A stretch of DNA of 64,000 bases. Source: Acidobacteriota bacterium. Its GTDB lineage: Bacteria; Acidobacteriota; Thermoanaerobaculia; Multivoradales; Multivoraceae. A model generated the notes under the pieces. That model searched no databases, was not told the origin of the DNA, and saw only the letters and a program-made list of their open reading frames with translations. The DNA is taken from positions 3,514-67,513 of the forward strand of contig JAJCXN010000003.1 of the NCBI GenBank assembly GCA_029263415.1, read 5' to 3'. Shown piece by piece: positions 3,871-48,303 of this stretch. The first letter of the stretch is position 1. Each line of letters starts with the position of its first letter. A program made the position numbers and the translations under genes.

Positions 3871-3901
3871 GAGCGAAGTGAGCTAAGCCAGTCTCAAGTG
3901 A

Positions 3902-5385: not shown

Positions 5386-5584
5386 TGAGGACCCCTGTCC
5401 GATGAGCCCGAGGAAATTGCACACTAAACGGACAGTACGGATGCCCCAAGATCATCCGCCGATATGATCAGCCGCCTGGTCCACTTTGCCCTGAGGCTTA
5501 AGAAACAAGCTCAAGTAGTAGGGTTGCCCGAACGAACAGCTCTCCGGCGACAGAGCACTACCTTTCCCTCCCTCGCGAGCAGGT

Positions 5585-7642: not shown

Positions 7643-7691
7643 AGAGGCAGGGGTCAGTTGACCGCATCTACCAGGCTGGGGCGACCAGCCT

Positions 7692-9019: not shown

Positions 9020-9484
9020 CTATTCCTTCTCTCGCAGCAGGTCGGCGTCAACAAGATCCTTCGCGCGACCCGCGGCCAGTTTGTTGGCCAGCAGCTGTCC
9101 CCGCGCGAGCACCGGCAGCTCCATGCCATCGATCGACACTCGGATAGCGGTACGTTCTGCTTCTTCCCAGTCAACACCGCTGATAGCTGTCAACAAATCA
9201 ATTCTTCGGGGAGGAACTCCGAGCTGGTACACCGTGCCCGCAATCTCGAAATCAGCCGCGGTGACACCATGAATTTCGACTGGCGCACCGAACTCCACGA
9301 GAGCCTCGAAAGCACGCTGGGCATTCTCAGGCTCCGGAACGATCAACAGGTCGAGATCCCCGGTCGCTCGCGGCACTCCGTGCACGGCGAGAGCGTGCGC
9401 ACCTACGACTACAAACCTTACGTTCCCCTCAATCAGCTCGAAGAGCAAGTCTCGAAAGTCCTGGTGCAGGACCGGCTCGTTCAA
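9020..9484 (-). CDS. Nucleotidyltransferase-fold protein, paralog of 7692-8186. Probable TTG start at 9484 overlaps the upstream stop (TTGA).
   Basis: FVVVGAHALAVHGVPRATGDLDLLIV motif. Plus-strand TCAA at 9481-9484 is the reverse complement of TTGA, so a TTG start would overlap the TGA of ORF 9481-9765. That start gives an N-terminal length matching the paralog. Confidence 0.55.
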   Translation of the reverse strand: MNEPVLHQDFRDLLFELIEGNVRFVVVGAHALAVHGVPRATGDLDLLIVPEPENAQRAFEALVEFGAPVEIHGVTAADFEIAGTVYQLGVPPRRIDLLTAISGVDWEEAERTAIRVSIDGMELPVLARGQLLANKLAAGRAKDLVDADLLREKE

Positions 9485-20005: not shown

Positions 20006-20163
20006 TCTGACTCTGACTCCTCTGACTACCTCTGACTATTCGACACCCGAGAGCCGCGGTGGGATCGAGAACCCGAGATAGACCGAGGTGAGACCGAGGA
20101 GACCGAGGAGACCGAGGAGACCGAGGAGACCGAGGAGATGAACGAATCGGAAGAAAGAGGCCT
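20001..20163 (+). repeat. Dispersed repeat, copy D: (CTCTGA)n, then (GAGACCGAG)x~6, then truncated core ATGAACGAATCGGAAGAAAGAGG.
   Basis: Direct reading. Core matches 20139-20161. Lies between convergent genes. Confidence 0.65.
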
Positions 20164-25800: not shown

Positions 25801-28800
25801 GCTCCGAGCCTTTCGAACACGATCAACATCGGTGGGCGATTCACCTCGATCACTCAACTCATCGCCGACCAAGACGGTACGTTCTACGCCATGGACGACC
25901 GGCGCCTGATGCACTTCGACGTCTTCGGACGCTTGTTGGGCTTGATCTTCACGCGGCCCGATGACGACGATGTCAACGGCAACATTGCTCGTCTCGAAAG
26001 TCCGAGCGGCAGCAACTGGGTTGATCTTGCCCGCTTTGGTGACGACTTCTACCTACTCAATCCAGGAGACGAACACAATTCGGACACGATACAGCGTTTC
26101 CGTTTCAACGATGGTTTCGCTGACTTCGACCTAATGGGAAGCGCCGGCCTTTCCTCGGCAGACGGCGGCCAGGCCCTGGCAGCCGAAGACAATGGTCTGC
26201 TGGGTTTGGGAAGCCACGCTCTAAAGTACTACCCGAATGGCGACCTGACCAACCCAGACCTACTTGGCGATTGGGACGATGGCTGCGATGGCGACTTCTG
26301 CAATGTGACCGAATTCGCTCAGATCATCAACGCCAACACCAACGAGCCATTCGTTGATGTTGCAGGTTATGACGGAACCGTCTTACTGAGTGACGGGCAG
26401 CGGGTCCACGCTTTGACCCTTGCGGGCGCTTACCGAGGATGGATCGGCAGTTGTTCTGCTGGCAGCCGCTGCGATGTCGGCACCGGGATGACCACTGAAT
26501 TTTGCACCGACTGCACTGAGTCTGGCCCGTCAATTGGCGACCAACTAGAGGTCAACCCGAGCAAGGGCTACTTGTATGTAGGCAACGGCAACGACCAGGT
26601 GTTGCTGTTCGCCTTGGATGACAACGGCAGTTTGCGCACCGAGATCTCACCGGACGGAGATCCGAACAACTTGCTCACGTTTCTAGAGGCGGGTGACTTC
26701 ACATCGGTCAATGCTTTTGCTGCTCTTGGTGACCACCTTTACGTGGCCGAGGGGTCGCCGCTGAAGCGAGTCCACTTCTTCGAGGTCGACGCCTTTGGCA
26801 ATGTGGAGTTGGATCAGGCAACGGTGACTTATACGCCAGATCCGGGGTACCTCGGCTCGGATCAAATTGGGTTCAATGTTGACGACGGCTTGGACCTGGG
26901 CCAACCGGCGGTGGTCAGTCTGGTTGTTGTTGATGACCAGACTGCTCCTGCAATCACGTGCCCTGCTGACATCACTGTTGAACTCACTCAAGCTGGCGGC
27001 GCGAAACCGCTCAATACCGAGACTGGGGACTTCGGTAGCAGGCAGTTGGCCGACTTCATCGAAGCTGGTATTGCTTCTGACAACGTCACTCTGCCGGCAG
27101 TAACGTTGACCGTTGATGTTGCTGGCTCCGCACTTCCGGCTGTCTTTCCTCTTGGCACTACGACCGTCCGATTTACTGCCACTGATGCTACTGGTTTGGA
27201 CACGCGTTGTACGGCGGATGTCAGTGTCGTCGACACAGTGCCGCCCCAGTTGATCCTCGACTCGCAGCTGAGGGTGGTTGAAGCCACGGGTCCGCTGACT
27301 TCGGTTGACTTGGTTGCTCCGGCCGTGATCGAAGTCGGTGGCGGCGTCGTAATCAGCAATGACGCTCCGGCTTCTTTCCCACTAGGTGACACCGTGGTGC
27401 GTTGGCAAGCGATTGATCTGAGTGGCAATGTCGGCTTCGCGGACCTCTTGGTGCAGATCGTAGATACCACGCCACCAGACATCGATCCTCTGCCAGCGAC
27501 GGTGATAGCCGCGGTCAATGGACACTCGAACACTCTGCAGTACTCCCAACCGACGGCCCATGATTTGGTTTCCGGCTCTGTAGAAGTTGCTTGCTCTCCT
27601 GGGGATGAAACGATCGAGCAGCCAGCTTTGCCGTACAGCGTCTATTGCCGTGCGTTCGATGCGAGCGAGAACGAGAGCAGCAGTGTTGTGCAAGTGGAGA
27701 TTAGGCAACTCGATGGCGACGATGATGGCATCGCCGACGTGATCGACAGTGTGCCAGCCGGGGCGGCTCGGCTCGGCCAACCGATGTTTAGCGACGTCGG
27801 CCTGGGCGGAGTGACGCATGGTGACCTAGCCGGCGACACAACGGGGTTGGCAATGTTGGACGCGCTGCAGGAGTCTTGGGGCGTCCGTGCCTCCGTTGCG
27901 CTGGCATCCACTGGGGAGGTGGCGGCCTGCGCCAATGAACTCAACATCAGTGAGCTAACTCCAACGATTGAAGATGGCGAGACGGTGCCCGGTGTTGTTG
28001 ACTTCTCCTGCTCTCCGGCGGCGCTACGTTTGATCAACGGCTCAGCAGCCGCGCGCTTCATCTTGCCCAACACGCTTTTTGTCGACTCTCAAGTCGAGAC
28101 TGGGCACGAGTTGAGTTTGCAGGGCTTTGTGGCCACGGCGTCCGCAGAGAACCCTGCCCCTCTCAGCCTAGTAGTTGAGAACTACCCAGATCCGGTCTTA
28201 CTCCAACCTGGGCAGTCAATCGACCTGTCGAGTGTTGCGATTCCGCTGTCTAGCCTCGCCATCACCAACACAGATGACTTGGCGGTCGCGGTACCGGGCC
28301 TTGGCCTCACATATACGATCAACGTCTCGAATGCTGGCCCCAATCCGGATTTTGCGGTCTCCGTCGCCGACTCATTTCCAACCGCGCTGGCCTGCAGCTG
28401 GACGAGCGTTGCCGACGGTGGTGCGACCGGCAACAGCAACAGTTCGGGCCTGCTGAACGATTCATTGAACATGCCAGTAGGAAGTTCGGTCGTTTATACA
28501 GCGGTCTGCGCCATCGACTCCTCAGCCACCGGGACGCTAACCAATACTGCTCAAGTGACGCCGTCAGGAAACGATCCTTCACTGGCAGACAATGTTGCGA
28601 TAGATGACAACACTGAGCTGACCCCGCAGGCAGACGCCGCAGTTAGCGTTGGTGATGGAACGACGATGGCCACCCCTGGAGAGACCACCCTTGGCTACAC
28701 AATCATCGCCACGAACCTCGGGCCTAGCGCCGACCCCAACCTGCATCTAACCGACGTCTTTCCCAATTCGCTCGATTGCGCCTGGACCAGTTTGGCCATC

Positions 28801-30351
28801 GGCGGAGCGACTGGTAATGGCAATGGAGTGGGCGATATTGATCAACTACTCAACCTGCCAGTGAACAGTTCGGTCACCTACAACGCACTGTGCGATATCG
28901 ACCCATCGGCTTTGGGTACGCTCACCAATACTGCGGTGGTGACGTCATCAGTGGCTGACCTGGTTGGCCTCAACGATGTTGCGACCGACGGCGACACCGA
29001 GCTCACTCCACGAGGCAATCTGTCAGTGATGCTCGCAGATTCGGCCGATCCGATCGCAGCAGGGCTGTCGTTCTCCTACTACGTGACGGTAAGCAACAAA
29101 GGACCGTCCACTGCGCGTGGCGTCATGGCTACCCTTGACCTCGCTGATGCGTTGACTGTGACTGCTACCACTGGTTGCGTCAACGACCCGCTCGGATCAC
29201 CGGCTTGCGAATTGAGTGAGCTGCTGCCGAGCGAATCAGTGGAGGTGGTGGTCGAGGTTGCGGTTGAGCCGGGGACTGAAGGCCCGATGACGAGCACCGC
29301 TAGTGTGACTACCAGCACAAACGAAACAGACCTCAGCAACAACTCATCGAGCGAAGACACCCTCGCCGACGCCACCGCTCCAGCGGTGACTCTGGTGGCT
29401 CACGTCAATGATTTGGGCAGCGTCGAAATCAGCGAGTGTTTGTTTACTAGCCAGTCCGTGTATGAGCTAGAGGTCACATTCAGTGAAGAGATGTGGGATC
29501 CCGATTCGAACGTGGAGCCGGGTGACGTCACCAATCCACTCAACTACCGACTGGTGGCGAGCGGCCCTGATGGCGACTTCTCAAGCGCAACGTGTGATGG
29601 GCCACTTGACGACGATGTCTTGCTCGCGATCGAGAGTGTGAACTACGACAGCGCGAACTCCACTGCTACGATCCATCTCGATCCACCAATTGCGCTCGGC
29701 GACTCGCTGTATCGCCTAAAGGTCTGCAGTACTCATCGAGACCTCGGCGGCAATCCGCTCGAAACGGACTCGGATAGCGCATTCCAGCGTCTCTTTCGAG
29801 TTGAGCGCACGACGATGCTTCGGAACGGTTCATTCGATTGTACGCTTGACGAGTGGGAAGCCACCAGCCTGCTGCCGGAGGAGATCGTGCACAGTTCAGA
29901 AGACGTCGACGGGTCAACAGTTTCTGGGTCGGCTCGCGTGGTGAATCTGTCTGGCAATGCCGACTTTGCGCTAGCGCAGTGTGTCGACACGATCGGCAAC
30001 ATCGAACAGACGATTCGGCAACAGACACGTGTCTCGTTGCCGTCGCCGTCGGTCTTGACATTGAGTAGATCGTGCGAGTTCTTCTCCGAAACTGCTTGTA
30101 CGGGCATCAGCCTAGTCAGCGATTTCTCGTTGACGTTCTTGGAAGATACCGCGGGGCTGTGGGAACCCATGCAAGGGATTCTGGCGGCCCCGGCAGAGGC
30201 TGACTCCTTGCGGTGCACGTACGACATTCGATCTCCAAGTGGAGCACCCTTCGAGGTGTTCATTGACAGTTCCAATCTGACGACGACCCCGCTCTTTGCC
30301 GATGGGTTTGAGTCCGGGAATACCGCGGCTTGGTCAGGGGGTGTGTTGTGA
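22855..30351 (+). CDS. Giant (2498 aa) secreted surface/adhesin-like protein with HYR (hyalin-repeat) domains, DUF11 'conserved repeat' domains and Ig/cadherin-like modules. Carries the C-terminal F.DGFE.G.T..W tag.
   Basis: Signal peptide MATATSFYTKVQGTLALLLVTCQVASAQ. HYR signatures (TDNCDQAP...AAEDASGN, DQTAPAITCPADITV...TATDATG). DUF11 blocks (LTYTINVSNAGPNPDFAVSVADSFP...TLTNTAQV). D-rich calcium-binding-like DGDDDGIAD. Ends ...LFADGFESGNTAAWSGGVL. Confidence 0.85.
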   Translation: MATATSFYTKVQGTLALLLVTCQVASAQLSASTPVALGSNSSTKESERSRANEVALANYNGFERDQLEGMARELLSEQDLAQIATLSDDLTQDLLNRGLTTNEAVGACALTGNIIFTWGASNLTSFGAIGIVKAFFSGGLLTNKLASIHKYLIAVVAGSTIMTACPPFLVPGDFSTYSRQEKLDWALSRGFAATKADDLLLSVDEPTNPGSCQRTVQMDLLVDPEYSGEVNRFEVTDPGTLPPLPGIALIEPFGTFPSPAGDLNSGFLQPGLFSAISFGLRLFASSTPPPQVIDTSDSLSLFPGGLTDNLAWAMDIMPDLSPFFEDPDRLSWYTNPFESWQPPVTVLDLPGDAVGMQLEVGSSEIRFQGRGENVTLEDLLGLGGEDAFFETLGDVFGLDGPVDLGFNLNPYTEFFNSLTYEQEVTVTEGFAPEFVVLTTEVVPSISPNPIPIVQSLVYEALFPTGVDRGLIQPYETAGGLTITDNCDQAPRLIDNVPPHVPLGISYHSVAAEDASGNRSSDYWVKIEVIDTIPPDLPPTDAVTVEVPAGSTAPLGPYICTDYLCQINDPVPLFPPPFFDLASLAPQYGCTVSNTIGADVPCEAASVPIGNASTAVPPSVIRWTATDAAGNSSSIDQLVAFREVGSNQRPAATAASYTIAANQPTTIPLAGTDGDLDPLDFLLTMPPVFGDLEISAEPTFQTRFSLNGTLQRLTGVVQYRVSVNAITRYLVADTANRRLIEVDGNGALTNMLFLGQVQPHAIASYRRPSVVEQISNSVFSNQSAIADSLVIADVSTNKLHTLVWDSTLGYVPSTGIPIPSAFGNTDPVMSIGFDIADTPGGSFGDQLLIVRQGDGVASTESFNGNFGDGFALTPDSAWNPSGGSAWTIQAEKYAIGPDCDDTAGGYYQVVHEFAHGSIGAGDRIFRRRNHSPSSLTRIDFPSLSLDAAVTGMFVECTGSNSVNLVLADNEGQRLQRWRQTFNNAPSLSNTINIGGRFTSITQLIADQDGTFYAMDDRRLMHFDVFGRLLGLIFTRPDDDDVNGNIARLESPSGSNWVDLARFGDDFYLLNPGDEHNSDTIQRFRFNDGFADFDLMGSAGLSSADGGQALAAEDNGLLGLGSHALKYYPNGDLTNPDLLGDWDDGCDGDFCNVTEFAQIINANTNEPFVDVAGYDGTVLLSDGQRVHALTLAGAYRGWIGSCSAGSRCDVGTGMTTEFCTDCTESGPSIGDQLEVNPSKGYLYVGNGNDQVLLFALDDNGSLRTEISPDGDPNNLLTFLEAGDFTSVNAFAALGDHLYVAEGSPLKRVHFFEVDAFGNVELDQATVTYTPDPGYLGSDQIGFNVDDGLDLGQPAVVSLVVVDDQTAPAITCPADITVELTQAGGAKPLNTETGDFGSRQLADFIEAGIASDNVTLPAVTLTVDVAGSALPAVFPLGTTTVRFTATDATGLDTRCTADVSVVDTVPPQLILDSQLRVVEATGPLTSVDLVAPAVIEVGGGVVISNDAPASFPLGDTVVRWQAIDLSGNVGFADLLVQIVDTTPPDIDPLPATVIAAVNGHSNTLQYSQPTAHDLVSGSVEVACSPGDETIEQPALPYSVYCRAFDASENESSSVVQVEIRQLDGDDDGIADVIDSVPAGAARLGQPMFSDVGLGGVTHGDLAGDTTGLAMLDALQESWGVRASVALASTGEVAACANELNISELTPTIEDGETVPGVVDFSCSPAALRLINGSAAARFILPNTLFVDSQVETGHELSLQGFVATASAENPAPLSLVVENYPDPVLLQPGQSIDLSSVAIPLSSLAITNTDDLAVAVPGLGLTYTINVSNAGPNPDFAVSVADSFPTALACSWTSVADGGATGNSNSSGLLNDSLNMPVGSSVVYTAVCAIDSSATGTLTNTAQVTPSGNDPSLADNVAIDDNTELTPQADAAVSVGDGTTMATPGETTLGYTIIATNLGPSADPNLHLTDVFPNSLDCAWTSLAIGGATGNGNGVGDIDQLLNLPVNSSVTYNALCDIDPSALGTLTNTAVVTSSVADLVGLNDVATDGDTELTPRGNLSVMLADSADPIAAGLSFSYYVTVSNKGPSTARGVMATLDLADALTVTATTGCVNDPLGSPACELSELLPSESVEVVVEVAVEPGTEGPMTSTASVTTSTNETDLSNNSSSEDTLADATAPAVTLVAHVNDLGSVEISECLFTSQSVYELEVTFSEEMWDPDSNVEPGDVTNPLNYRLVASGPDGDFSSATCDGPLDDDVLLAIESVNYDSANSTATIHLDPPIALGDSLYRLKVCSTHRDLGGNPLETDSDSAFQRLFRVERTTMLRNGSFDCTLDEWEATSLLPEEIVHSSEDVDGSTVSGSARVVNLSGNADFALAQCVDTIGNIEQTIRQQTRVSLPSPSVLTLSRSCEFFSETACTGISLVSDFSLTFLEDTAGLWEPMQGILAAPAEADSLRCTYDIRSPSGAPFEVFIDSSNLTTTPLFADGFESGNTAAWSGGVL

Positions 30352-36706: not shown

Positions 36707-37712
36707 ACAAGGGGAAGACCGTGGTATTTCGCCTCATCAAACACCACGTTTCTCGAAGGTCCCTCCTCATTCGAGCCAGCGCATGCCATCCTCCAACCAC
36801 ATTTCCTGGACCATCTCACCTTCTCCGCCGAAAGTGTCGCCTCTTTGGTGAAGCTCGGTGAGTTCAAGGGGCAGCAGGAACTCTTTCGCCGGCAGCGCCC
36901 CGAGATCCTGACTGCACTCCGGACTCGCGCATCGATCGAGTCAACCGAGTCATCTAACCGCATCGAAGGCATCGTCAACTCGCGCAAGAGAGTTGAGCTG
37001 ATCGTTGAACGGAAGGCGGAGCCCGAGACCCGCTCCGGGCAAGAACTCGCGGGCTATCGCGACGCCCTTCAACTCATCCGCAAATCGGCTCTCGACATGC
37101 CTTTTCGTGAATCCGTCTTGCTCCAGCTCCACAAGATTCCCTTCCGCTATCAGCCAGCACGTGGAGGTCGTTGGAGGCCCACCGACAACTCCATCGTGGA
37201 GCTCGACGCTACCGGCAGGATCCCCAAGTTGAGATTCGATCCTACGCCTGCGATCGCAACATCTCAGGCGATGAATGACCTCACAACCGGGTTCACAGAA
37301 GCCCTAGCCCGCGGCCCCCTACGATCCGATGGTGCTGATTCCGCTGGCGGTGCTGGACCTCTCCTGCATCCACCCCTTCGCCGATGGCAACGGTCGCATC
37401 AGTCTCCTAGCAACCCTCCACCTGCTCTATCTCAGTGGATACGACGTTGGCCGACTCATCAGTCTGGAGCGCCTGACTGAGAACACAAAGGTGGGCTACT
37501 ACCGCGCTCTGCAGCGCAGTTCGCTGGGTTGGCACGAAGACCAGCATGATCCTCTGCCTTGGCTGCAGTATTTATGGGGCATCCTGCTGGCGGCTTGTCG
37601 TGAGTTCGAAGAACGGGTGGGCGAGATCGCAGGTGGACCGGGAGCCAAGTCGCGGCAGGTTCGCGCCGCGGCCCGACGTCGCCTTGCACCGTTCTCGATC
37701 TCAGAGCTCTAA
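36707..37712 (+). pseudogene. Fic/Doc-family protein gene (HPFADGNGR), apparently 5'-truncated (no in-frame start before TTG 36845) and carrying a frameshift in a C5 run near 37313-37320.
   Basis: Frame 1 reads ...ILQPHFLDHLTFSAESVASLVKLGEFKGQQELF...TEALARGP. Frame 2 continues DPMVLIPLAVLDLSCIHPFADGNGRISLLATLHLLYLSGYDVGRLISLE..., which contains the Fic motif HPFxDGNGR. Removing one C at GGCCCCCTAC restores a continuous Fic ORF. Confidence 0.6.
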
Positions 37713-37923: not shown

Positions 37924-38910
37924 CTACGGATATGGGCAGATCCACTTGCCGATTGGTTCAGCAACAGCCATTTGTTTGCGCGTCTCGGGGCACATCGCGA
38001 TGTCGGTGGACGAGCACACGCCGAACTTTGCGCATGGCTGGAGGTGTTGATACATCAGACCTTCCTTGCTCTTTGAGGGATCATTTACCACCCCACATTT
38101 CTTGCTGTTCGGCCGGTCGCGTGCACCGAGATTGTGGAGCACCTCATGCTCGGTAGCGAACATGGTTTCTAGGCACGACGCGCTCACGGCAGAGACTCCG
38201 CAGTACCGGCAGCCGGCGCCGATCTGCGCGAGCCCGGCGCCCTTGCACAGTCCATCCTTGCGATCGACGAAGCCAACCAGAAACCGGTCGCTGCCCCGAA
38301 GCTCCTGAATGAAACGTAAGACGGCCAGCACACAGCCATAGCTCTTGATCTTCCCAAGCGTCAGCTTAGCGATCCGAGTGCCCGCCACGAGGTTGACACC
38401 GACTCCCAAAGAATCGACGTTTGCTATGTGGTGCGCCACCGCCTTTTCATCGGGCATCGTTGCGGAGCTCGCGGCGGCGCTGTCCCATGTCACCCAATCC
38501 ACAGTGACTGACGACGGAGGTTTAACACCGCTTGGTTTGGCTCCCGACAGGCCGCAACCACACACAGCCTCGCCCACAACGGTAGGCTTGACCATGACCT
38601 GCTTCCCACTAATGGTTGCACAGGCGCTCGTTTTGCCTCCGCAGACGAAGCTCCGCTTCAAAGCGGTACCCCCATTTACCGTGATCTCGATAAGCTGGCG
38701 GTCGTCGTCTCCCTTCAGATCTCGACTGCTGACAGTGACACTGACGACTAGGCGCTCCTCGGCCGCAACGCTGAGGAGTTCGAGGTCAAAGCTCTCCTCC
38801 TCCGGGGTGCCCGCTGGCAGATCGAGAACCTCGATTCCGCCTGAAGAACAGGCCAGCAGGGCCAGTAGGGCCACGCAAGCTCCAAGGCGAGACCTGCTCC
38901 ATCGGCTCAT
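37924..38910 (-). CDS. Cys-rich lipoprotein with a metzincin-like HExxHxxGxxD motif (putative zinc metalloprotease; Asp as third ligand, as in snapalysin-type enzymes).
   Basis: Lipobox ...LLALLACSSGG. 20+ cysteines. ATEHEVLHNLGARD near the C-terminus. Start chosen at MSRWSRSRLGA (38910). Confidence 0.5.
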   Translation of the reverse strand: MSRWSRSRLGACVALLALLACSSGGIEVLDLPAGTPEEESFDLELLSVAAEERLVVSVTVSSRDLKGDDDRQLIEITVNGGTALKRSFVCGGKTSACATISGKQVMVKPTVVGEAVCGCGLSGAKPSGVKPPSSVTVDWVTWDSAAASSATMPDEKAVAHHIANVDSLGVGVNLVAGTRIAKLTLGKIKSYGCVLAVLRFIQELRGSDRFLVGFVDRKDGLCKGAGLAQIGAGCRYCGVSAVSASCLETMFATEHEVLHNLGARDRPNSKKCGVVNDPSKSKEGLMYQHLQPCAKFGVCSSTDIAMCPETRKQMAVAEPIGKWICPYP

Positions 38911-39935
38911 TTGCAGGAGATGGCCCACAGATCCTTGACGGCACTGGCCTTCGCCAGTCCCCTTGGCGGATTGCAGTTCGAGGTCCCCGTACCTGTTCCA
39001 GTCCCCATCTTCTTGGGTAGTTTAGGCCTAGGAGCGAGATCTCTTAGGGTCTTGCCGTTCCTCTTCATTTCCTTTTGCAGAGTTTTGGCCTTGTTGTTCT
39101 CGAAGAGCGCCAGGCTCCACAACACGTCCTCGTCGGTCCCGACCGCTCTGCTCACATTCCACTCCAGCGGGTTGTCGTAGCAGAGGTTTGCCAAGGTCAC
39201 CTCCAATTGGCCGTTCCTCTTCAACTTACCCAACGAGAGGATTCTGGCCTTCTTCTTTTGGTCCAGGTCTTCCACGACGATCTCCACCTTCTTGACCCCG
39301 GGCACTTCCCATATGAACGCTTCGGTTATGGGCTTGGTGGCACCAACTTTCTCGTTTGTGCTGTGTAGTTCCCACCGCAGGTTGTTGCCAGGCTCCTCGC
39401 AGGAGAACCGTCCGTACTTACCGAGCAGCACCTGCGCAATGACGGTGGGGGGTGGGACTTTCTCAAGGTTGTCGCTCTCTACGTAACGGCCCACGATCGC
39501 CGACAGATCAAGGGCGTTGCCAACACTCTCTTCTGCCCCCCAATCAACGAGGTTACTGTAGTCGTAGCTGCCCCATTTTGAGGTGTGTTTGAGTCCGTCT
39601 TTAGCATCGCGCTGGATTGACCACGGTGGCCTCTGCTCACCCTTGAACCTAAATCGGAACGTCAGTCGTTGCCGGTTCAGATAGGCCATATGTTTCACGA
39701 ACGCATCACTATAGGCGGGCTCCGGCCCTTTCGACGGCCAACGCAGGAACCCTAGATGCGGGCAATCGGACGAGTCTCTGCCAAGCACATCCTGCTCGAT
39801 AGGGTCGGGAGGCGCTTCCTTGATCGGCAGTAGGGCGGCAAGGTTGGGCAACACCACTGCCACAGGACCGTCTTTCTCCCAATCATCGGAGACCGCCAAC
39901 GAAACCCCTGTAATTCTCAAACGGAACGTGCCCAT
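38907..39935 (-). CDS. Hypothetical cytoplasmic protein (342 aa), visibly lower G+C, with a GT-repeat (GTGTGTGT) near the C-terminus. Overlaps the downstream lipoprotein gene by 4 nt (operon).
   Basis: Uninterrupted ORF with no signal peptide and no known motif. AT-richer composition than its neighbours. Confidence 0.5.
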   Translation of the reverse strand: MGTFRLRITGVSLAVSDDWEKDGPVAVVLPNLAALLPIKEAPPDPIEQDVLGRDSSDCPHLGFLRWPSKGPEPAYSDAFVKHMAYLNRQRLTFRFRFKGEQRPPWSIQRDAKDGLKHTSKWGSYDYSNLVDWGAEESVGNALDLSAIVGRYVESDNLEKVPPPTVIAQVLLGKYGRFSCEEPGNNLRWELHSTNEKVGATKPITEAFIWEVPGVKKVEIVVEDLDQKKKARILSLGKLKRNGQLEVTLANLCYDNPLEWNVSRAVGTDEDVLWSLALFENNKAKTLQKEMKRNGKTLRDLAPRPKLPKKMGTGTGTGTSNCNPPRGLAKASAVKDLWAISCK

Positions 39936-40033
39936 GATGACTCCTCTGCTTCGATTGTTGTTCGTAGCTACTAGCGTTTGAGCTGCCTTCGCGCTCGGGG
40001 CACTCCACAGGCCCTTTCCTTCACTGAGCAGTC

Positions 40034-42880
40034 CTACCCCGATACCTGTAGCGCAGACCAGCCCGACACAGGCGCTCCGATCTTCACAGAATCTCGCACT
40101 ACTAGACGGACAGCTTCCTCAGGTTCCACGCCTCCTAGCAATTCTCTGTGAAGTCTCTCCTGCAGCTCCACGGTTTCTGAGTCGTCGATGGGCCAGAGAA
40201 AGCCGACGACTCGCGCTGCCCCCGAAGAAAGGAAGCGCCGGGCCAGCCCGGTGACCAGCCGCCCCCTATTGGGCGCTGCCACCGCCGAGCTACACACGGA
40301 CAAAGAGACCAGCTCCAGATGCCGGATGGGTCCCAAGTCGTCGACCTTGAGTCCAACATCCGCCAGTACCAGAGACTCCACCCAAGGCACGTCTCGATCC
40401 GGACGGCTGTGCATAGCGAAGTGGATCCAGTTCACGGTCGGCACTAGAGCCTTGATGCGGGGTGCACTCGCCAACTCGCCGGTGACGAGGGTGGCTCGTG
40501 CACCATAGAGTTCCTGCAGAGTCGACGATTCACGCTCGACTTCCCGCAACGGCGGCAACAACCCCAACGGGTCGATCGCATTGGCGACGATACCGATGTT
40601 CGCGCCTTCCGTCTTGGGGAAGTTCAGGGTGCTCTTCCTTGTGCCAAACGGTGCCACCAGCACCGAGTGCGTCGCACCCAGGAACTGGTTCGACTGGTCG
40701 TCGACCAACGCCAGGAACGGAAGGTTGCCCAACCAGCGATCCGGCACCAGAACCAGTCGATCATGCTCCGACAACTGCAACGGTCGGATCAGCGAATCGT
40801 AGAGAGTGGAACTCGCGGAACGGATCTCGGCCCAAGCATCGCCGCGGGCCAGCGCCGCCGCGAACGAATGAGCGAGCGACGCCAGCGCAGGCGCGTCCTG
40901 TCGATGGGCCATGAGGGCCGGAAGGCCGGCGCCGTCCCTCACCAGGATGGTCAGCGTGGACCCGGTAACCAAGTAGTGGGCGACGACCGTCTTCGGGCCG
41001 GCCCTAGAACGAGTGGTACCGCGTTGCGTAGGGTTGTCCTCCAGAGCCCAAGCGCGTTCGAGTGCACTCAGCGCCTCTGAGTAACGGCCCGACTCGATCA
41101 GCAATTGGATGAGGTGGTCGACCGACGACTGCGCATTCTCAAGATACTCCAACCGAAACTGATTGGGACCGATCCGTGCCAGGATGCGCTCGTTGTGCTC
41201 AAGGGCCTGCCACAACAACGTGAGGCCAGCGGCAACTTCGCCGTGTGCCGCGGTCGCACGGCCGACTGCCTCGAGGGCCTTGCCTTCCCAGACCAAATCA
41301 TTCTGCTCGCGCACTCGCGCCAGCGCTCGTCGGGCGACGCTGAGTGTTCCGTCTCCCGCGGCAACGCCGATTTCGGCGTGCTGCAGGCTAGACAGCATCC
41401 TGGCTCTCTCGACGACGGTTCCGGCATGCTCTTGCGACTCGCGCTCCACTGCTTCGCGGGCGCGCTGGTTGTGACGTACCGCGCGGGAGAGGTCGCCCGC
41501 TTCGAGCGAGATTCGAGCCTGCGCAAAGTCTTGCTCGAAGCCGTAGATCCAACCGTCGAGCGCTTCACCAACCCGCGCCCGCTCGTGTTGGAAGACGGCG
41601 GCCAGGCCCGTGCAATCGCCGCACGCGGTCGCGGCGTCGCCGAGCAGGGCATGAAAGAAGTGCGATGGGCCCAAGCCAGCAAATGCGTGCAAGGCCTCGA
41701 TGCGCCGCTCCCACGCGACTGGCCCTTCGGCGAGGTGTCCCAACAGCTCGGCTTGCAGATACAGACTGTTGGCCACCTGCAGGGGGTCTTCCGCAGCGCG
41801 GAACTGACGTTCGGCCTCACGGAACGCCCGCAGTGCTCCTGGGTAGTCACCCGCACGACCGAGCGAGAGTCCTGCTCTCCACACCACCATCCCAAGTTGT
41901 GCGGGTTCAACCACGGCCGCGGCGCACGGCTCGAACACCAAGGCTTCGGCCGAATCCTGCAAACTCATCTGCGCAAGATCTCGATAGGTGCAGACCCAAG
42001 AAGCCAGCAGCGACGGGGTCGGTTTGGGACTGTCGAACATCGCGTCCCAGACCACCAACGCCTCGCCGTACCTACCGTCCCGATACGCTCGATAGGCGCT
42101 GGAGAACTGACGCCAGGAGGACTCCTCAACACTCTCGATCAGTACACGCCACCGGCGCGACCAGGAGCTGCCGACTTCCGCCTCCAGAATCTGCGATGCG
42201 CGAGCGAGATCCCCTTCGAATACCAGACGCCGCACTGCTGACTCGCTCCCCAGATCGTTACCATTCGGGGAGCGCTCTTGTGCGATCTGCTGCGATACCT
42301 GAAGGCCCAGTCGTCGGGCGAGCGCCATCAACCCCGGGGCCGCCGCCGGTGATAGTTCCGACAAACTGGCCTGGGCTGCGTGCCATAGACCTAGCTCCGC
42401 GAGCGCTAGCGCGCGATTGACCAACTGCTCCGCGGCGGCCTTCTCGAGGGGATCGAACAGCAGACAAAGAGCACGCACAAGATCAGTGACCTGTCCGTTC
42501 TCCTGCCAACGTATCAACAGCGCGACGGCCAGATTGTTGCGGTCCCGCGCAGAGCCAGCTCGATGAAGAGCGCGTTCGAGAATCCCCACCCCCGGATCCG
42601 GGCGACCCATGGCGACTGCGATCAGGGCCGTATCGGACGACCCGTTACCCATAGTCGTAAGTCGGCCGACACCTCCTGCACACAGGAACTTCGGCGCGGG
42701 CGCGCAGGGGCCGGAGTCGAATGTCGCGGCTGTCGGCACCAAGCTATGAGCCCAGTCAACAGTCCGTGAATCGGGAGCGCAGGAGGCAACGGTCAGTGCA
42801 CACAACACCACCCAAGCACCACGTGCACACCCTAACCCTGTCAGTCCGTCGCAGGCATTCGTGGAAGCGGTGGAAGACAA
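40034..42880 (-). CDS. TPR-CHAT protein (N-terminal TPR/tetratricopeptide-like repeats + C-terminal CHAT caspase-like domain), probable lipoprotein.
   Basis: N-terminus MSSTASTNACDGLTGLGCARGAWVVLCALTVASC has a lipobox-like Cys. C-terminal ...NWIHFAMHSRPD...(~40 aa)...LVSLSVCSSA gives the His/Cys dyad. Multiple Ala/Leu-rich TPR-like helices. Confidence 0.75.
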   Translation of the reverse strand: MSSTASTNACDGLTGLGCARGAWVVLCALTVASCAPDSRTVDWAHSLVPTAATFDSGPCAPAPKFLCAGGVGRLTTMGNGSSDTALIAVAMGRPDPGVGILERALHRAGSARDRNNLAVALLIRWQENGQVTDLVRALCLLFDPLEKAAAEQLVNRALALAELGLWHAAQASLSELSPAAAPGLMALARRLGLQVSQQIAQERSPNGNDLGSESAVRRLVFEGDLARASQILEAEVGSSWSRRWRVLIESVEESSWRQFSSAYRAYRDGRYGEALVVWDAMFDSPKPTPSLLASWVCTYRDLAQMSLQDSAEALVFEPCAAAVVEPAQLGMVVWRAGLSLGRAGDYPGALRAFREAERQFRAAEDPLQVANSLYLQAELLGHLAEGPVAWERRIEALHAFAGLGPSHFFHALLGDAATACGDCTGLAAVFQHERARVGEALDGWIYGFEQDFAQARISLEAGDLSRAVRHNQRAREAVERESQEHAGTVVERARMLSSLQHAEIGVAAGDGTLSVARRALARVREQNDLVWEGKALEAVGRATAAHGEVAAGLTLLWQALEHNERILARIGPNQFRLEYLENAQSSVDHLIQLLIESGRYSEALSALERAWALEDNPTQRGTTRSRAGPKTVVAHYLVTGSTLTILVRDGAGLPALMAHRQDAPALASLAHSFAAALARGDAWAEIRSASSTLYDSLIRPLQLSEHDRLVLVPDRWLGNLPFLALVDDQSNQFLGATHSVLVAPFGTRKSTLNFPKTEGANIGIVANAIDPLGLLPPLREVERESSTLQELYGARATLVTGELASAPRIKALVPTVNWIHFAMHSRPDRDVPWVESLVLADVGLKVDDLGPIRHLELVSLSVCSSAVAAPNRGRLVTGLARRFLSSGAARVVGFLWPIDDSETVELQERLHRELLGGVEPEEAVRLVVRDSVKIGAPVSGWSALQVSG

Positions 42881-43474: not shown

Positions 43475-44824
43475 TCAGTTCCCAGTGATCGTCTTGCGTA
43501 GTGACTTCAGATCGATGGCCGCCAACACGCTGATGCGAATGTCTGACGGCCCGTCACCGCTTTTCGGAATATCGGCGAAAAGCCGCGTCGCTAGCCGCGC
43601 TGTCTCATTGCCCAATCTCGGAAACTCAAGCTGGGCTTCAAAAAAGTAGCGGTCACGCTCGTCACGCTGAACAACTTCCGGGTCAGTGCTTGGATCGCCA
43701 TCGGCATCGATCGATTCTTCAAACTGCCAGATGTCATCCCGCGCCATTCCGAACTGAACGAACCCGGTGGTCCCGCCAAAGTTCACCGGATCAAGTTTGC
43801 GATTATAGGAGTTCACCTGCCAACGAGCACCATAGAAGTACCGCTCCTTGGCTTCCACCGAGCTTCCGCTTCCGCCAGAAAACGTCGAGAAGCCGATGCC
43901 ACCCACCAGGCCGAACGACGGTGGATACAGCGGGTTTCCCTTAATCGTCGATTTTGGGTAGTAGACCGCATAAGCGTTGCCGCGGACGATCGATCCGCCT
44001 TCAGCGAACGGGTTGAAGATCTCTGGTGCTGCAGGCATCTCCGGCATTGCCGTCTCGGCCTCAGGCATCATCATTTCCTCATCTGGTGGAGGCGTCTCTT
44101 TGATGGCTGCGATCTCGGACAATCGGATGTCAACAACGCCTGTAATGCTCCTCGTCCAGCGCGACGTCGCGATCAGAGCGAGTTCGAGAGCACCATCGAA
44201 GCCATCGTCTTTGTTCCGCGAGAACACAGTGCCTGCATCGATCTTGAGCAACTGTTTCTCGAACGCGATCAGATAGGCCTGACCTTGGCGTCGTGCGGCG
44301 CAGACCTTGCCTTGCTCTTGCATGTGCTCTGTCCATTTCCGGTCTGCTTCCTCAGCCTCCTCTACGGTCTCCCCTTCCGCCGGTTCTCTCTTGCGCATGA
44401 GCTCATCGAAAGACTCAAAGGTCACACTCAGCACGTTGTCCAAGTAGAAGTCGAATCCTCCGAGTTCAACCGGAATCTCAAGAGTGCCGGGCAAAACGTG
44501 AAACCGACGGTCGGCCATTGGAGCGCTGGAGGCCCGCAGATGAGGCGGCACCATCACATCGATCGGCTGGGATCTTTGGCCGTCCGTTGTGCCTTGCAAT
44601 TGGAACTCGAAGTACCCCTCGGACTCCACTTTCACCACTAGCGTGGACTGGAATGGGCTTTGAAGCACAAGATCAAAGGCCGGCACATCACACACCATGC
44701 CCGCGCTTTGGCCAAACGACGGTGCGGCAACAACACCAGCAACGAGAGCCACGAGGAGTAAAGCCAACAACATTGACTTTGGTAGTGACTTCGAACATCT
44801 GGATCGGTCGCGGTTTACGTTCAT
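43475..44824 (-). CDS. Secreted hypothetical protein (~450 aa) with an acidic Met/Pro/Glu-rich linker; possible outer-membrane/periplasmic protein.
   Basis: Signal peptide ...KSLPKSMLLALLLVALVAGVVAAPSFGQ. Long ORF. No known motif. Start at ATG 44824 (GTG 44833 also possible). Confidence 0.5.
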   Translation of the reverse strand: MNVNRDRSRCSKSLPKSMLLALLLVALVAGVVAAPSFGQSAGMVCDVPAFDLVLQSPFQSTLVVKVESEGYFEFQLQGTTDGQRSQPIDVMVPPHLRASSAPMADRRFHVLPGTLEIPVELGGFDFYLDNVLSVTFESFDELMRKREPAEGETVEEAEEADRKWTEHMQEQGKVCAARRQGQAYLIAFEKQLLKIDAGTVFSRNKDDGFDGALELALIATSRWTRSITGVVDIRLSEIAAIKETPPPDEEMMMPEAETAMPEMPAAPEIFNPFAEGGSIVRGNAYAVYYPKSTIKGNPLYPPSFGLVGGIGFSTFSGGSGSSVEAKERYFYGARWQVNSYNRKLDPVNFGGTTGFVQFGMARDDIWQFEESIDADGDPSTDPEVVQRDERDRYFFEAQLEFPRLGNETARLATRLFADIPKSGDGPSDIRISVLAAIDLKSLRKTITGN

Positions 44825-45033
44825 CAATCTCACAGGCTGTCTCCTTGTTCTTGTTCTGGTCCATCACGTTCGAAAGAGCACTACGAAACGTTTCCTGTAG
44901 CGATTCGCTCTCAGTGGGGTTAGACGGACAAGTTCCGCGTTTTCAACGAAAACCAACATGGCCCGCTCGTTGGTCTCCGGAACGAGATCGGATCGTTCAC
45001 CTCCGCCGTGGAGCCGAGTGCTACGCTCGCTCC

Positions 45034-46209
45034 ATGACCGCTCGCCTTCAACTTCAGGCACACTCGCGCACCAAAGCCAGACGAGTGAGGTTGGCACTGC
45101 GTCCGCTCATTTGCGCTGTCGGACTCTCGCTGGGCTGCGGTCACACAATCCGCATGGAAACAATGGACGGTCGTGCGGCGAATTTCGACTTTCGTTCGTT
45201 TCAGTGTGAGCTACGAGCCGCAGCGCCCGCGACAGCTGCAGACCTTACGATTCGATACCTAGGTGTATCCGGTATCTACTTTGAGTGGCAGGGCGTCGGC
45301 TTGCTTTCAGCACCCTTCTTCTCGCATCAGGGTTTACTGCGCGTCGCCACAGGCAAGGGTCGTGTCAACAAGGAAGCCATCCGGAAAGGGATGGCTGGAG
45401 TACCCCGTGGTGCCGCCGCGGCGATGCTGATCGGTCACGCACATCACGACCACTTACTCGATGTGCCACACATTGCCCAACAGCATCCCGAAGCGATGAT
45501 TTATGGGAACCTCACAGCGACCAACCTGCTAGCGGGCACCGGCGATCTAGCGACCCGAACGAAAAGCCTCAATCAGCGCCTCGGCAGCTGGATTCAGCTC
45601 TCAGACCCGAACGGAATCGCACTTCCAATTCGCTTCATGGCAGTTCCATCGCCTCACGCCAGGCAGGGACCACTCTTCCACTGGGCACCCGGGTCCGTGA
45701 ACACAGCCAATCCAGACGGTCTCAGCCAGGTGCCCCTCCGCAATTTTAAGCAAGGGCAACCGCTCGCTTTCGTGGTCGATTTCCTCAATCCTAAGCGGGG
45801 AGATGTCGCTGTCAGGGTCTATCTCCAAGACGCCGCAACAGAAAGGAGTGGCCTGTCTCCGACGCAAGCTCACCCCGCACTCACAGAGCGCCCATTCGAC
45901 TTAGCAGTCCTCTGTATCGCATCCTTCCATCTGACTGATGGCTTTCCGGAAGGCCTCCTGTCTGACCTCGAACCGCGCCACGTCATGGTGACTCACTATC
46001 GCGACTTCTTTAGACCGCCTCACAAGCCAGTCCGTTTCGTGCCGATGCTGACGAACCGGAGGGCCAACCGATTCTTGGAGCGGGTAGCCGCTTCACTGAA
46101 AGCCCAGGAACGACCAGCGCTGCAGTGGTCAGCCCCTAGCTGCGGGCCGTCAGGACCGGGTTGGACCATGCCCGTCCCAGGCGAGCTACTCCAGCTAAAA
46201 ACGCCCTAG
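45034..46209 (+). CDS. Metallo-beta-lactamase-fold hydrolase, probable lipoprotein.
   Basis: ATG at 45034. Lipobox-like ...ICAVGLSLGCGHT. HxHxDH motif in LIGHAHHDHLLD. Confidence 0.6.
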   Translation: MTARLQLQAHSRTKARRVRLALRPLICAVGLSLGCGHTIRMETMDGRAANFDFRSFQCELRAAAPATAADLTIRYLGVSGIYFEWQGVGLLSAPFFSHQGLLRVATGKGRVNKEAIRKGMAGVPRGAAAAMLIGHAHHDHLLDVPHIAQQHPEAMIYGNLTATNLLAGTGDLATRTKSLNQRLGSWIQLSDPNGIALPIRFMAVPSPHARQGPLFHWAPGSVNTANPDGLSQVPLRNFKQGQPLAFVVDFLNPKRGDVAVRVYLQDAATERSGLSPTQAHPALTERPFDLAVLCIASFHLTDGFPEGLLSDLEPRHVMVTHYRDFFRPPHKPVRFVPMLTNRRANRFLERVAASLKAQERPALQWSAPSCGPSGPGWTMPVPGELLQLKTP

Positions 46210-46341: not shown

Positions 46342-48303
46342 GTGCAAAACAAGCTGCGTTCTTGGGTACTCGCAACTATCGTCGGTGTCATCCTTCTGGC
46401 TGCAGGATCTAGTTTCACCCACGCCTACCAAGGAAACGAGCACATAGCAGCCTCCAATCTGGGATTTGAACTCGCCCTGATGAGCCTGCTTGAACAGGGA
46501 GTTCTCAGTACAGCCGAGGCCGAAGAGTTGCGCGACAGCTATCTCGGCTGCGCACTGGCCCGGTCGAACAGGCGAGACTGTGTCCCCTTTGGCGCTATTA
46601 ACTCAGCAGTTGACCGTGTCTTCAGGCCTGAGGCACTTGTACCCGTCGAGTTCCTACATGACGCAACATCGAATGTTCGCAATCAACTCGCGGCAAGCCT
46701 TCCTGCCTGGGCTCCCGAGCGTTGTGGCCAGTTCCGCCATCTCGTCCCGGTCCCAGAGGTGCTTGACGAAATGCGCAACTTCAGGTCCAGAAACGAGAAC
46801 GTGTTCGAACCCTTCCCATTTGGTGTTGGCCGAGTTGCACGTAAAACCTGGCCATGGATGAGGCTGCTGATCGTTCACCAGAACACCAATCACTTTGAAG
46901 CGTGTGCGGCTGCAAAGTACTCCCAGCTTCATGCTCTCGCGCTGGAACTGGCTCGACCCAGCAATGGCGCGCCGTACGAGTCGAACCTGGCCGCTGCCTT
47001 GTTCGCTGAAGGAGCCGCTCAACACTTCCTCCAAGACGCAATCGCGCCCGGTCACCTCATGACCGCCCGTGGCAACGCTTCTGATTTGATTGGGCGCTTT
47101 CTGCACAACCGCAACAACCGCCAGCTTCTGCTCGGCCGCTTTGACTCCAATGACTGGCAGCCTTGGGCGGACCGTATCGACAAACTCCTATCAGCCCAGT
47201 CGCCAGACTGCCCAAACCTCACCAAGACTTCTGACCCAATCGAGTCCGCGCTATGTCGGCTTCCCGACGAACCACTCACCCAGCTACGCGACTGGAACGC
47301 ACCAGACGAGATCGAGCGGCGCTCTAAAGACCTGGGGCCACTCGCTACACTCCGACGAGGACCGCCGATCAAGAAACAGGCCGATGTGGCCAGGACAGAA
47401 CTCGAACAGATTGGAAAGACCGAAACCACTTGCGGTTCGCAACCTTGCAGCTCGATCGGCATGCTTGGCGATGGCGACGCATCCCACAACCGTGTGTTCG
47501 TCGCTCTTGCGGTACTCAGCGCCCGCTCTGTAGAAGAGGTCCTTCTGCACCACACAAGGCCAGATTCTGACCTTGCCTCAAACCCTATGGGATTCTGGTT
47601 TCGCTTGTGGAGCGCGGAAGCGACGGAAAACGGCCTCCCCAACGAAGAAACGCTTCAGCGGCCTGGAATGGCGATGACCTCGTCTTCGACCGGCATCGCC
47701 ACTGAACCGAACGCAGCGTTCCCCTATGAGACGTTCTTTGGCTTCCATCCAACCGAAAGCGGAAACCTTGATCGCTTCGGTTGGAGCCCTGGTCCGGGTG
47801 AGGTCTCGCTTTCATTTCTCAAGAGTGGCGCGGACGATCAAGAGGGGATGCGCTACGAGGCAAGCTGGCTCTTTGGGAGTCCACGCGAAGAAGATATCTG
47901 CCGCAACCCAGCGACGCAGGAGGGTGGCTGCACCGAGACCGGAAATCGCTTCACCCAGGTCTACGGTTCCTTAGTCAATGGTCCTGTCCTCTCCTGGTCC
48001 ATGAGCTACGAAGACTGGAACCACTTCGACGCCTACGGCCCCAAGCTTCGCTGGTGGTCGCATCTGAAGAGTGCAGGAGGACCTCGCATCGACTTTCTCT
48101 GGGGAGTTGATCTCGGTCTCAAGCGTTACACCAACGCCGCCAGAACCACCGACCGACTTGTCTGGGGCGGACACATCGCGACAGGCTTCTCCATCGTCTT
48201 CCTGGATCTTGGCATCGAACGGGGAAGCGTCCTCAACCGAGCTGGCGAACAGATGCGAAGCACCAACACGTCACTGTCGCTTCGGATTCAGCTGCCCTTC
48301 TAG
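46342..48303 (+). CDS. Secreted protein with a zinc-dependent phospholipase C / S1-P1 nuclease-like N-terminal fold (putative) and a C-terminal domain of unknown function.
   Basis: Signal peptide MQNKLRSWVLATIVGVILLAAGSSFTHA. GAAQHFLQDAIAPGHL resembles the H..GD..P.H zinc-ligand block of PLC/P1 nucleases. Functional call is tentative. Confidence 0.4.
   Translation: MQNKLRSWVLATIVGVILLAAGSSFTHAYQGNEHIAASNLGFELALMSLLEQGVLSTAEAEELRDSYLGCALARSNRRDCVPFGAINSAVDRVFRPEALVPVEFLHDATSNVRNQLAASLPAWAPERCGQFRHLVPVPEVLDEMRNFRSRNENVFEPFPFGVGRVARKTWPWMRLLIVHQNTNHFEACAAAKYSQLHALALELARPSNGAPYESNLAAALFAEGAAQHFLQDAIAPGHLMTARGNASDLIGRFLHNRNNRQLLLGRFDSNDWQPWADRIDKLLSAQSPDCPNLTKTSDPIESALCRLPDEPLTQLRDWNAPDEIERRSKDLGPLATLRRGPPIKKQADVARTELEQIGKTETTCGSQPCSSIGMLGDGDASHNRVFVALAVLSARSVEEVLLHHTRPDSDLASNPMGFWFRLWSAEATENGLPNEETLQRPGMAMTSSSTGIATEPNAAFPYETFFGFHPTESGNLDRFGWSPGPGEVSLSFLKSGADDQEGMRYEASWLFGSPREEDICRNPATQEGGCTETGNRFTQVYGSLVNGPVLSWSMSYEDWNHFDAYGPKLRWWSHLKSAGGPRIDFLWGVDLGLKRYTNAARTTDRLVWGGHIATGFSIVFLDLGIERGSVLNRAGEQMRSTNTSLSLRIQLPF

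Follow-up and report, generated by a model that had tools for sequence, protein, structure and literature searches.

A conserved three-gene module of a TPR-CHAT protease, a middle protein of an undescribed family and an exchangeable second protease in an Acidobacteriota genome

The stretch of DNA considered here, called the window, comprises 64,000 nucleotides of contig JAJCXN010000003.1 from an Acidobacteriota bacterium (GenBank assembly GCA_029263415.1, positions 3,514 to 67,513 of the forward strand). In it, three genes follow one another on the minus strand. The first encodes a protein with a tetratricopeptide repeat (TPR) region and a CHAT domain of the caspase family, the second a middle protein, here called MID, and the third a cysteine-rich, metzincin-like lipoprotein. 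These three open reading frames (ORFs) lie exactly where an earlier note on this DNA had placed them, and the triad is one conserved module around the caspase-family protease. Its layout in the window is the following:

40034..42880, minus strand: TPR-CHAT gene, 948 amino acids (aa) from a TTG start; the NCBI gene call is 925 aa, with its start at 42811
39936..40033, minus strand: spacer of 98 bp between the CHAT and MID genes, with GGAG 7 nt ahead of the MID ATG, as read from the sequence
38907..39935, minus strand: MID gene, the middle gene of the triad, an ORF of 342 aa from an undescribed family, without a signal peptide
38907..38910, minus strand: ATGA, the stop/start overlap of the MID and lipoprotein genes, as read from the sequence
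37924..38910, minus strand: gene of the Cys-rich metzincin-like lipoprotein, with predicted export, 328 aa from ATG; there is a GTG at 38928, and the NCBI call is 316 aa

The overlap of 4 nt between the last two genes, which had been claimed before, is thus present. The MID gene is modestly AT-richer than its surroundings, since its GC content is 56.5%, compared with 63.7% for the CHAT gene, 59.8% for the lipoprotein gene and 59.1% for the window. No convincing terminator was found between the CHAT and MID genes, and scans for promoters and terminators were uninformative.

The same arrangement recurs beyond this genome. MID loci were taken from GTDB species genomes (11 loci) and JGI metagenomes (27 loci), together with 9 contigs fetched by protein identity. 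In all, the module is found in about 50 loci of soil bacteria, including Acidobacteriota, Gemmatimonadota and soil metagenomes or unplaced lineages, and the 11 GTDB loci all belong to Acidobacteriota (mostly Thermoanaerobaculia) or Gemmatimonadota (Gemmatimonadaceae and Longimicrobium). In hidden Markov model scans of the ORFs, a CHAT gene of roughly 1000-1170 aa adjoins MID wherever the flank suffices, which is the case in about 35 loci, and a protease gene then follows. Where CHAT was scored as absent, the locus ends no more than about one gene away from MID on the side in question. As a rule, the CHAT gene is immediately upstream of MID on the same strand, and the stop codon of one gene often overlaps the start codon of the next. 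Junctions between MID and the protease gene are also often overlapping or nearly abutting in other loci. In a subset, the order is MID-protease-CHAT, at times followed by a second MID copy. The pairwise identities of MID and CHAT proteins correlate (r = 0.74, 253 pairs), with MID diverging faster. For instance, L013, a contig of 3.6 kb that stems from an unrelated sequencing run, bears the closest MID (34% identity) and the full triad, with a CHAT protein of 40% identity over 404 residues (E 4e-72) and a lipoprotein homologue of 345 aa (27% identity, E 3e-25) that has a Sec signal peptide and 14 Cys. A third, more distant member of the lipoprotein family is encoded downstream of MID in another locus (L016).

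The gene after MID almost always encodes a protease, and the class of this protease differs by lineage, with three metzincin-like subfamilies, S8 subtilases, C14 caspases and papain-like peptidases. The Cys-rich metzincin-like protein, predicted to be exported, is the type found in the window's own clade. Proteins of a second, HELGH family have roughly 365-470 aa and end in LLAHELGHVLGGxH, and their profile matches MPII of Bacteroides fragilis (E 5.6e-4) and fragilysin (E 2e-3). A subtilase of the Peptidase_S8 family follows MID in at least 13 loci (Pfam E values down to 1e-44), and a caspase of the Peptidase_C14 family does so in one sub-type (Pfam E 9e-16). A convergent HEWMHVAGFxH protein and a papain-like peptidase are also among the types. 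Many of these partner proteases are Cys-rich, and the HELGH partners, like MID, have invariant cysteines. An identity of the lipoprotein family with the HELGH family was considered and rejected, as only the zinc motif is shared (hhalign probability 38%).

In addition, MID and the protease can be parts of one polypeptide. P0046 is a MID fused at its C-terminus to a HELGH metzincin-like domain, and P0055 carries a papain-like domain at the same end. In both, the joint lies just past the conserved C-terminal tail of MID. The papain-like domain of P0055 is encoded by a separate gene in L048 (E 9e-36). Because such fusions are Rosetta-stone evidence, MID and the protease appear to work together. 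The earlier proposal of a single proteolytic module, with the middle protein as substrate, inhibitor or adaptor, is supported by synteny and fusions, but the second protease need not be a metzincin, since the class varies by lineage. By the same recurrence of synteny, the idea that unrelated genes came to lie together here by chance is in practice refuted. With about 50 loci spread over two phyla or more, and with fusions and start/stop overlaps, this explanation has next to no likelihood.

Several variations on the module were also seen. L037 holds two tandem modules (1788-14921), CHAT-MID-S8 and then HELGH-CHAT-MID-HELGH, while in L003 (1873-8443) and L014 (3155-9536) a second MID copy stands right after CHAT, without a protease of its own. 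After the papain-like protease, a gene of 188-189 aa without a Pfam match follows in L015 (10652-11218) and L048 (3649-4218). The two copies match each other with E 9e-35, and their product may be an inhibitor, an immunity protein or a substrate. In two unrelated loci (L002, 15779-17461; L015, 1428-3137), a gene for a GAF-adenylate/guanylate cyclase is found at most a few genes away from the module, and a gene for a patatin-like protein comes after the module in L018. In the window, the upstream gene of 452 aa (43475-44833) was considered as a possible part of the module and rejected, because it is not conserved in other MID loci.

The features of the TPR-CHAT protein, all on the minus strand, are these:

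40097..40816, minus strand: CHAT (caspase-family) domain, residues 689-928; Pfam PF12770, with profile matches to DdvA, Csx29 and separase
41021..42583, minus strand: TPR-like alpha-helical region, about residues 100-620, with approximate limits, from the family profile
40409..40411, minus strand: predicted catalytic His824 in FAMHS, invariant in 11 orthologues and aligned with DdvA H862
40292..40294, minus strand: predicted catalytic Cys863 in LSVCSS, invariant in 11 orthologues and aligned with DdvA C907
42779..42790, minus strand: lipobox-like V-A-S-C (residues 31-34), closing a hydrophobic segment at the N-terminus, as read from the sequence

The CHAT domain is recognized by Pfam PF12770 at residues 689-928 with 100.6 bits (cut-off 24) and E 1.4e-28. 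In the single sequence, the Pfam matches to TPR are sub-threshold (E 0.012-0.1). Nevertheless, a profile of 11 full-length orthologues matches consensus TPR structures (E 4.5e-8), as well as Rap phosphatases, over positions of about 95-630. As these matches fall in the N-terminal and middle parts, the reading of the protein as TPR plus CHAT stands, its TPR half at the level of the family profile and not of the single sequence. Over its full length, the window protein aligns with 10 orthologues encoded in MID loci (22-27% identity). When a profile was built from the C-terminal 330 residues of the 11 orthologues, the best solved relative was DdvA of Myxococcus xanthus (8ROT/8RW5, E 7.7e-13), while Csx29 was matched with E about 3e-6 and separase with E about 4e-5. 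The likeness to Csx29 that had first been noticed is therefore that of a detectable relative, but DdvA and not Csx29 is the closest characterised one. The His/Cys dyad on which the caspase-like assignment had been staked does align, being invariant in the 11 orthologues and matching H862 and C907 of DdvA, which are given as the catalytic dyad in the DdvA report (PMC11506125).

An N-terminal signal, a lipobox or a transmembrane or signal anchor, with positive charges N-terminal of it, is present in all eight of the full-length CHAT orthologues examined. Because of this, these TPR-CHAT proteins are predicted to lie outside the cytoplasm, as DdvA does and Csx29 does not. DdvA and the window protein share the order of TPR and then CHAT, the aligned catalytic His and Cys and, by prediction in the case of the window protein, an extracytoplasmic position. 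By contrast, the window protein is a predicted lipoprotein and not a transmembrane protein, and it has neither the N-terminal zinc anti-sigma domain nor an adjoining cognate extracytoplasmic function (ECF) sigma factor. It is also paired with MID and a second protease, for which no counterpart came up in the passages of the DdvA report that were consulted (PMC11506125).

This closeness to DdvA raises the alternative of envelope signalling in which the TPR-CHAT protein is a DdvA-like periplasmic sensor protease, with MID and the protease as merely co-regulated outputs and without a direct reaction between MID and CHAT. DdvA is the closest relative of solved structure, and for its periplasmic TPR-CHAT part the proposal is that it sets off the regulated proteolysis of an anti-sigma factor (PMC11506125). 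A broader TPR-CHAT relative adjoins an ECF sigma gene in L047, and genes for a sigma factor and a zf-HC2 anti-sigma factor lie near MID in L004. Such an arrangement would also remove the mismatch of compartments discussed below. However, Pfam finds no zf-HC2 or anti-sigma domain in the window CHAT protein and no sigma or anti-sigma domain among the flanking window ORFs scanned, and a sigma/anti-sigma pair occurs in only one of five MID loci with scanned flanking genes. Moreover, the tight and often overlapping CHAT-MID junctions, together with the co-varying identities, suggest a physical partnership. On balance, the sensor explanation is quite unlikely. As separate observations, TPR-CHAT genes without MID occur in L046 (4607-8790) and L047 (4854-8658), and one of them lies directly after a subtilase gene that itself follows a gene for an unknown protein of 172 aa.

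The earlier note had compared the protein with Csx29, the protease of Craspase (Csx29, Cas7-11 and Csx30; type III-E). Both systems have the order of TPR and CHAT, and both have a small protein encoded nearby, which in Craspase is the substrate Csx30. Csx29 is cytoplasmic and activated by RNA, whereas the window CHAT protein bears an export signal. The absence of a CRISPR context, also stated before, holds. There is no CRISPR array in the 64-kb window, and none of the nine window proteins scanned, the TPR-CHAT protein included, has a credible PADLOC match. The sole match to a cas model, Cas5g, is marginal (E 0.005) and falls on an unrelated window ORF of 430 aa. A Craspase context was accordingly rejected, as the window has neither an array nor, among the proteins scanned, a credible PADLOC match, and the genes conserved beside CHAT encode MID and a protease. 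Elsewhere in the window, a second CHAT protein of 950 aa is encoded at 12779-15631 (minus strand; Pfam E 6e-10). Its N-terminal region is unrelated to that of the first and no MID adjoins it, and it was rejected as a paralogue of the module's CHAT protein. Next to its gene is one for a Ser/Thr kinase of 921 aa with fused TPR repeats (16212-18977, minus strand).

MID has no match in Pfam, NCBIfam or PADLOC, all members having been scanned, so that the earlier description of the middle protein as AT-richer and devoid of known domains is upheld, with a modest shift in composition. A word-index homology search returned only the protein itself, and phmmer against 1.8 billion representative proteins found 20 homologues that are about as long as MID (E 1.6e-39 to 7e-4). 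With the members derived from the loci, the family comprises 68 distinct sequences, 290-345 aa long. The alignment of the 20 homologues displays an N-terminal M-x-F-x-L-x-V-x-F-T-G-L-C-x-F-V, His60, A-N-L-C-x-x-N-P-L-x-W, D-x-D-x-x-W, P-x-P and a Cys near the C-terminus. In the 68 sequences, H60, G175, N250, C252, N255-P-L-x-W259, D268, D270, W273, P302, P304 and C321 are 96-100% conserved, with N250, C252, N255, P256, L257 and W259 at 97% or more. The corresponding features of the window MID are:

39159..39188, minus strand: signature N-L-C-Y-D-N-P-L-E-W, residues 250-259, with invariant Cys252, from the alignment
39117..39134, minus strand: signature D-x-D-x-x-W, residues 268-273; D268, D270 and W273 at least 99% conserved
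38964..39035, minus strand: C-terminal tail of P302-x-P304, a variable Gly-rich linker and invariant Cys321; P302, P304 and C321 at least 99% conserved
38982-39005, minus strand: (Gly-Thr)4 linker of the tail, residues 311-318, as read from the sequence

An odd GTGTGTGT tract that had been reported in this gene is in fact this (Gly-Thr)4 peptide, and the DNA string is absent from the whole window. AlphaFold2 gave a useless model of MID from the single sequence (predicted local distance difference test, pLDDT, 33). With the family alignment, it gave a confident model of a mainly beta structure with C-terminal helices (pLDDT 75.5, predicted template modelling score 0.82), in which the conserved C-terminal tail is modelled as packing back onto the beta-rich core. 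Foldseek found no match to this model in PDB or BFVD, and the MID profile matched no PDB sequence at E<=10. No signal peptide is present at the N-terminus, where conservation begins at residue 2 and the model shows a beta-hairpin with confidence. Kinship of MID with CHAT or with the N-terminal regions of the partner proteases was considered and rejected, as they are unrelated, and no MID was found in viral contigs.

The constancy of MID beside proteases of varying class gives rise to another explanation, in which MID is the payload, a toxin or cell-death executor activated by cleavage, as in the logic of gasdermins. The CHAT protein and the variable protease would then be activators, the latter replaced by non-orthologous displacement. 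Bacterial gasdermins are of similar size and adjoin CHAT and C14 proteases that are often fused to TPR, and fungal gasdermins adjoin subtilases (bioRxiv 10.1101/2021.06.07.447441). Likewise, the context of gasdermin operons, though not more than the context, resembles the module, with a non-enzymatic protein of roughly 250-340 aa beside CHAT, C14 or S8 proteases, often with TPR fusions. The beta-rich core of MID, with its conserved C-terminal tail modelled as packing onto it, and its faster evolution relative to CHAT also fit a payload. Nevertheless, MID shows no similarity to gasdermins in Pfam, PADLOC, PDB sequences (E<=10) or a Foldseek search of PDB, and its identity as a gasdermin was rejected as far as it is testable. 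Two proteases per payload and fusions of MID to a protease are atypical of gasdermin systems. In addition, the CHAT partner here is predicted to be exported, whereas known gasdermin proteases are cytoplasmic. A payload of this kind is thus unlikely.

The third gene of the window encodes the putative second protease, the relevant features of which are:

38848..38859, minus strand: lipobox L-L-A-C with Cys21, as read from the sequence, after an n-region with 3 Arg and a hydrophobic core
38116..38148, minus strand: zinc motif H-E-V-L-H-N-L-G-A-R-D, residues 255-265, with Asp at the third-ligand position, as read from the sequence
38047..38061, minus strand: candidate Met-turn G-L-M-Y-Q, residues 284-288, 19 residues past the zinc motif

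Its signal, MSRWSRSRLGACVALLALLA followed by C, fits a lipobox as a pattern match only, and the N-terminal hydropathy reaches 2.71 over a 12-residue window. The protein holds 16 Cys, and not more than 20 as had been counted before, while the motif HEVLHNLGARD, with Asp as the third ligand, is present as described. A word-index homology search returned only the lipoprotein itself, and single-sequence Pfam searches gave no match for it and only sub-threshold ones for the L013 and L016 homologues. A profile of the three family members matched, among PDB entries, the catalytic domain of ADAMTS-5 (E 5e-4) and MPII of B. fragilis (E 1.2e-3), as well as snake venom metalloproteinases, fragilysin and karilysin. 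The ADAMTS-5 match covers the strand preceding the motif, the motif itself and the downstream LM. The LM of GLMYQ aligns with that of ADAMTS-5 and is kept in L013, and the candidate in L016 is TVMAS. The reading of the lipoprotein as a metzincin is therefore supported at the level of the profile, below Pfam thresholds.

The strand ahead of the motif, the pattern HExxHxxGxx(H/D) and the downstream LM are all shared with the adamalysin/fragilysin metzincins (M12-like; ADAMTS-5, MPII and BFT). In profragilysin, a pro-domain occupies the N-terminal region, and the lipoprotein has a long N-terminal region at that place. By contrast with these enzymes, the match of the lipoprotein stays below every Pfam gathering threshold, and the window copy carries Asp where two orthologues carry His. 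Indeed, the zinc motifs of the orthologues are HEVAHLLGAHH (L013) and HEFGHLLGAGH (L016), so that Asp is specific to the window copy. As Asp is the third zinc ligand of snapalysins, the site may, by analogy, still bind zinc.

Taken together, the module is of a known kind, as caspase-family protease modules with downstream effectors have been described, and what is new is the obligatory MID partner and the unusual, exchangeable second protease. The interpretation favoured here, tentatively and at somewhat less than an even chance, is a protease cascade in which TPR-CHAT is the initiator and the variable protease the executioner, with MID as an adaptor or latency subunit. The TPR-CHAT protein would act as sensor and initiator, its trigger being perceived through the TPR part. 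MID, the constant part, would serve as adaptor or as latency subunit and link a swappable executioner to the initiator. CHAT would then cleave the MID-protease pair and set the active protease free. The likeliest cleavage site would be the conserved MID tail, with its P-x-P, Gly-rich linker and Cys, because the fusion joints lie there, although as a processing or docking site the tail is a candidate by inference only. In this window, the executioner would be the adamalysin/fragilysin-like Cys-rich lipoprotein with Asp as third zinc ligand. A role in conflict or defence, or in envelope-stress signalling, seems most likely.

A precedent for such a cascade is SAVED-CHAT, which cleaves and activates a second protease, PCaspase (bioRxiv 10.1101/2023.06.23.546230). 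In this system of Haliangium ochraceum, a hybrid of type III-B CRISPR and cyclic-oligonucleotide-based antiphage signalling (CBASS), a CHAT protein activates a protease of the same cluster, which is the logic proposed here, and one MID sub-type likewise precedes a C14 caspase. The module differs in having TPR and not SAVED as its sensor, no cyclic-oligonucleotide machinery and MID as an extra constant part, and in drawing its second protease from any of four classes. A constant component, a caspase and a variable effector together form a recognised pattern of conflict systems (PMC7159879). The EACC1-caspase systems (Kaur et al. 2020, PMC7159879) are alike in that a constant part and a caspase-superfamily peptidase accompany variable effectors released by proteolysis. 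However, EACC1 is a small domain with a single transmembrane segment, whereas MID is a soluble, beta-rich protein of 300 aa with other motifs, and the variable parts of the module are all proteases.

Several points weigh against the cascade. Its direction and the cleavage site are guesses, and no PADLOC system matches the module. A constant protein beside variable proteases fits MID as a substrate or payload equally well. Broader TPR-CHAT relatives without MID exist, either with an ECF sigma factor or with an S8 protease alone. Finally, there is a mismatch of compartments, as the CHAT partners and the window metzincin are predicted to be exported while MID has no signal peptide, and the S8, C14 and HELGH partners lack one too. 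This leaves export of MID by a route that is not recognised, or else a signal that passes through the membrane. In this respect, MID has two invariant Cys (Cys252 and Cys321), as in disulfide-bonded secreted proteins.

These cysteines, along with the Cys-rich partner proteases, also bear on an explanation akin to polymorphic toxins. MID would be the N-terminal trafficking or secretion domain of exported protease toxins, and CHAT the releasing peptidase. The pattern of polymorphic toxins is a constant N-terminal part combined with variable enzymes, either C-terminal to it or encoded downstream and at times fused, an architecture that is reportedly covered in a published review. The gene of 188-189 aa after the papain-like partner could encode an immunity protein. 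Nevertheless, this conserved follower is confined to the papain-like sub-type, and a consistent immunity gene after the protease is absent in most loci. No secretion apparatus is linked to the module, and the neighbouring genes vary by locus. Furthermore, MID and the protease are mostly separate proteins, and viral contigs yielded no MID. A toxin of this type is therefore very unlikely. Returning to the cascade, it is possible, if rather doubtful, that MID represents a new fold and family and acts as the obligatory coupler of an envelope protease cascade or, alternatively, as a new cell-death effector activated by cleavage.

The remainder of the window holds other genes of interest. Three ORFs adjoin the module, at 43475-44833 (minus strand), 44518-46209 (plus strand) and 46342-48303 (plus strand). 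They have no significant Pfam match, one of them having only a sub-threshold match to the metallo-beta-lactamase fold, and no homologues of them were found in other MID loci. The first, of 452 aa, has an N-terminal hydrophobic segment resembling a signal peptide. On the other side, a Fic/DOC gene in two overlapping ORFs (36845-37480 and 37329-37712, both on the plus strand) converges on the lipoprotein gene, with a weak Fic_N match in the first ORF and the Fic core motif in the second. This split gene may be a frameshifted pseudogene. Further away, two genes for AbiEii-type nucleotidyltransferase toxins (3902-4702 and 9020-9586, both minus strand; Pfam E 6e-12 and 1.6e-7) and the small ORFs near them (4552-5424, 7692-8691 and 9481-9798) look like a type IV toxin-antitoxin cluster. 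An ORF of 2498 aa (22855-30351, plus strand) with DUF11 repeats (E 2e-32), an HYR domain and no PADLOC match is probably a surface protein. Just outside the gene of a 7TMR-DISM histidine kinase, a perfect 9-nt tandem repeat, GAGACCGAG, extends over 49 bases (20090-20138, roughly 5.5 copies). The window proteins that were looked up (P0001-P0003 and P0062-P0065) are all singleton clusters in a collection of 15 billion proteins, the lineage being poorly sampled.

A description of the module was not found in Pfam, NCBIfam, PADLOC or the searchable literature. Caspase-family triggers of proteases or death effectors are a current theme of bacterial immunity, with Craspase, SAVED-CHAT/PCaspase and the gasdermin operons as examples. 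To this theme, the module adds a TPR-CHAT protein that is predicted to be exported, a MID partner without known relatives and a second protease that is freely exchanged by class. Its hosts belong to lineages (Acidobacteriota, Gemmatimonadota and unplaced ones) in which few such systems have been characterised. If the cascade is true, the module would be a compact three-gene system for licensing a protease via an adaptor, and it would help to find out what DdvA and other periplasmic TPR-CHAT sensors perceive. It would then also be a prokaryotic counterpart of the initiator and executioner logic of caspases, operating in or across the cell envelope.

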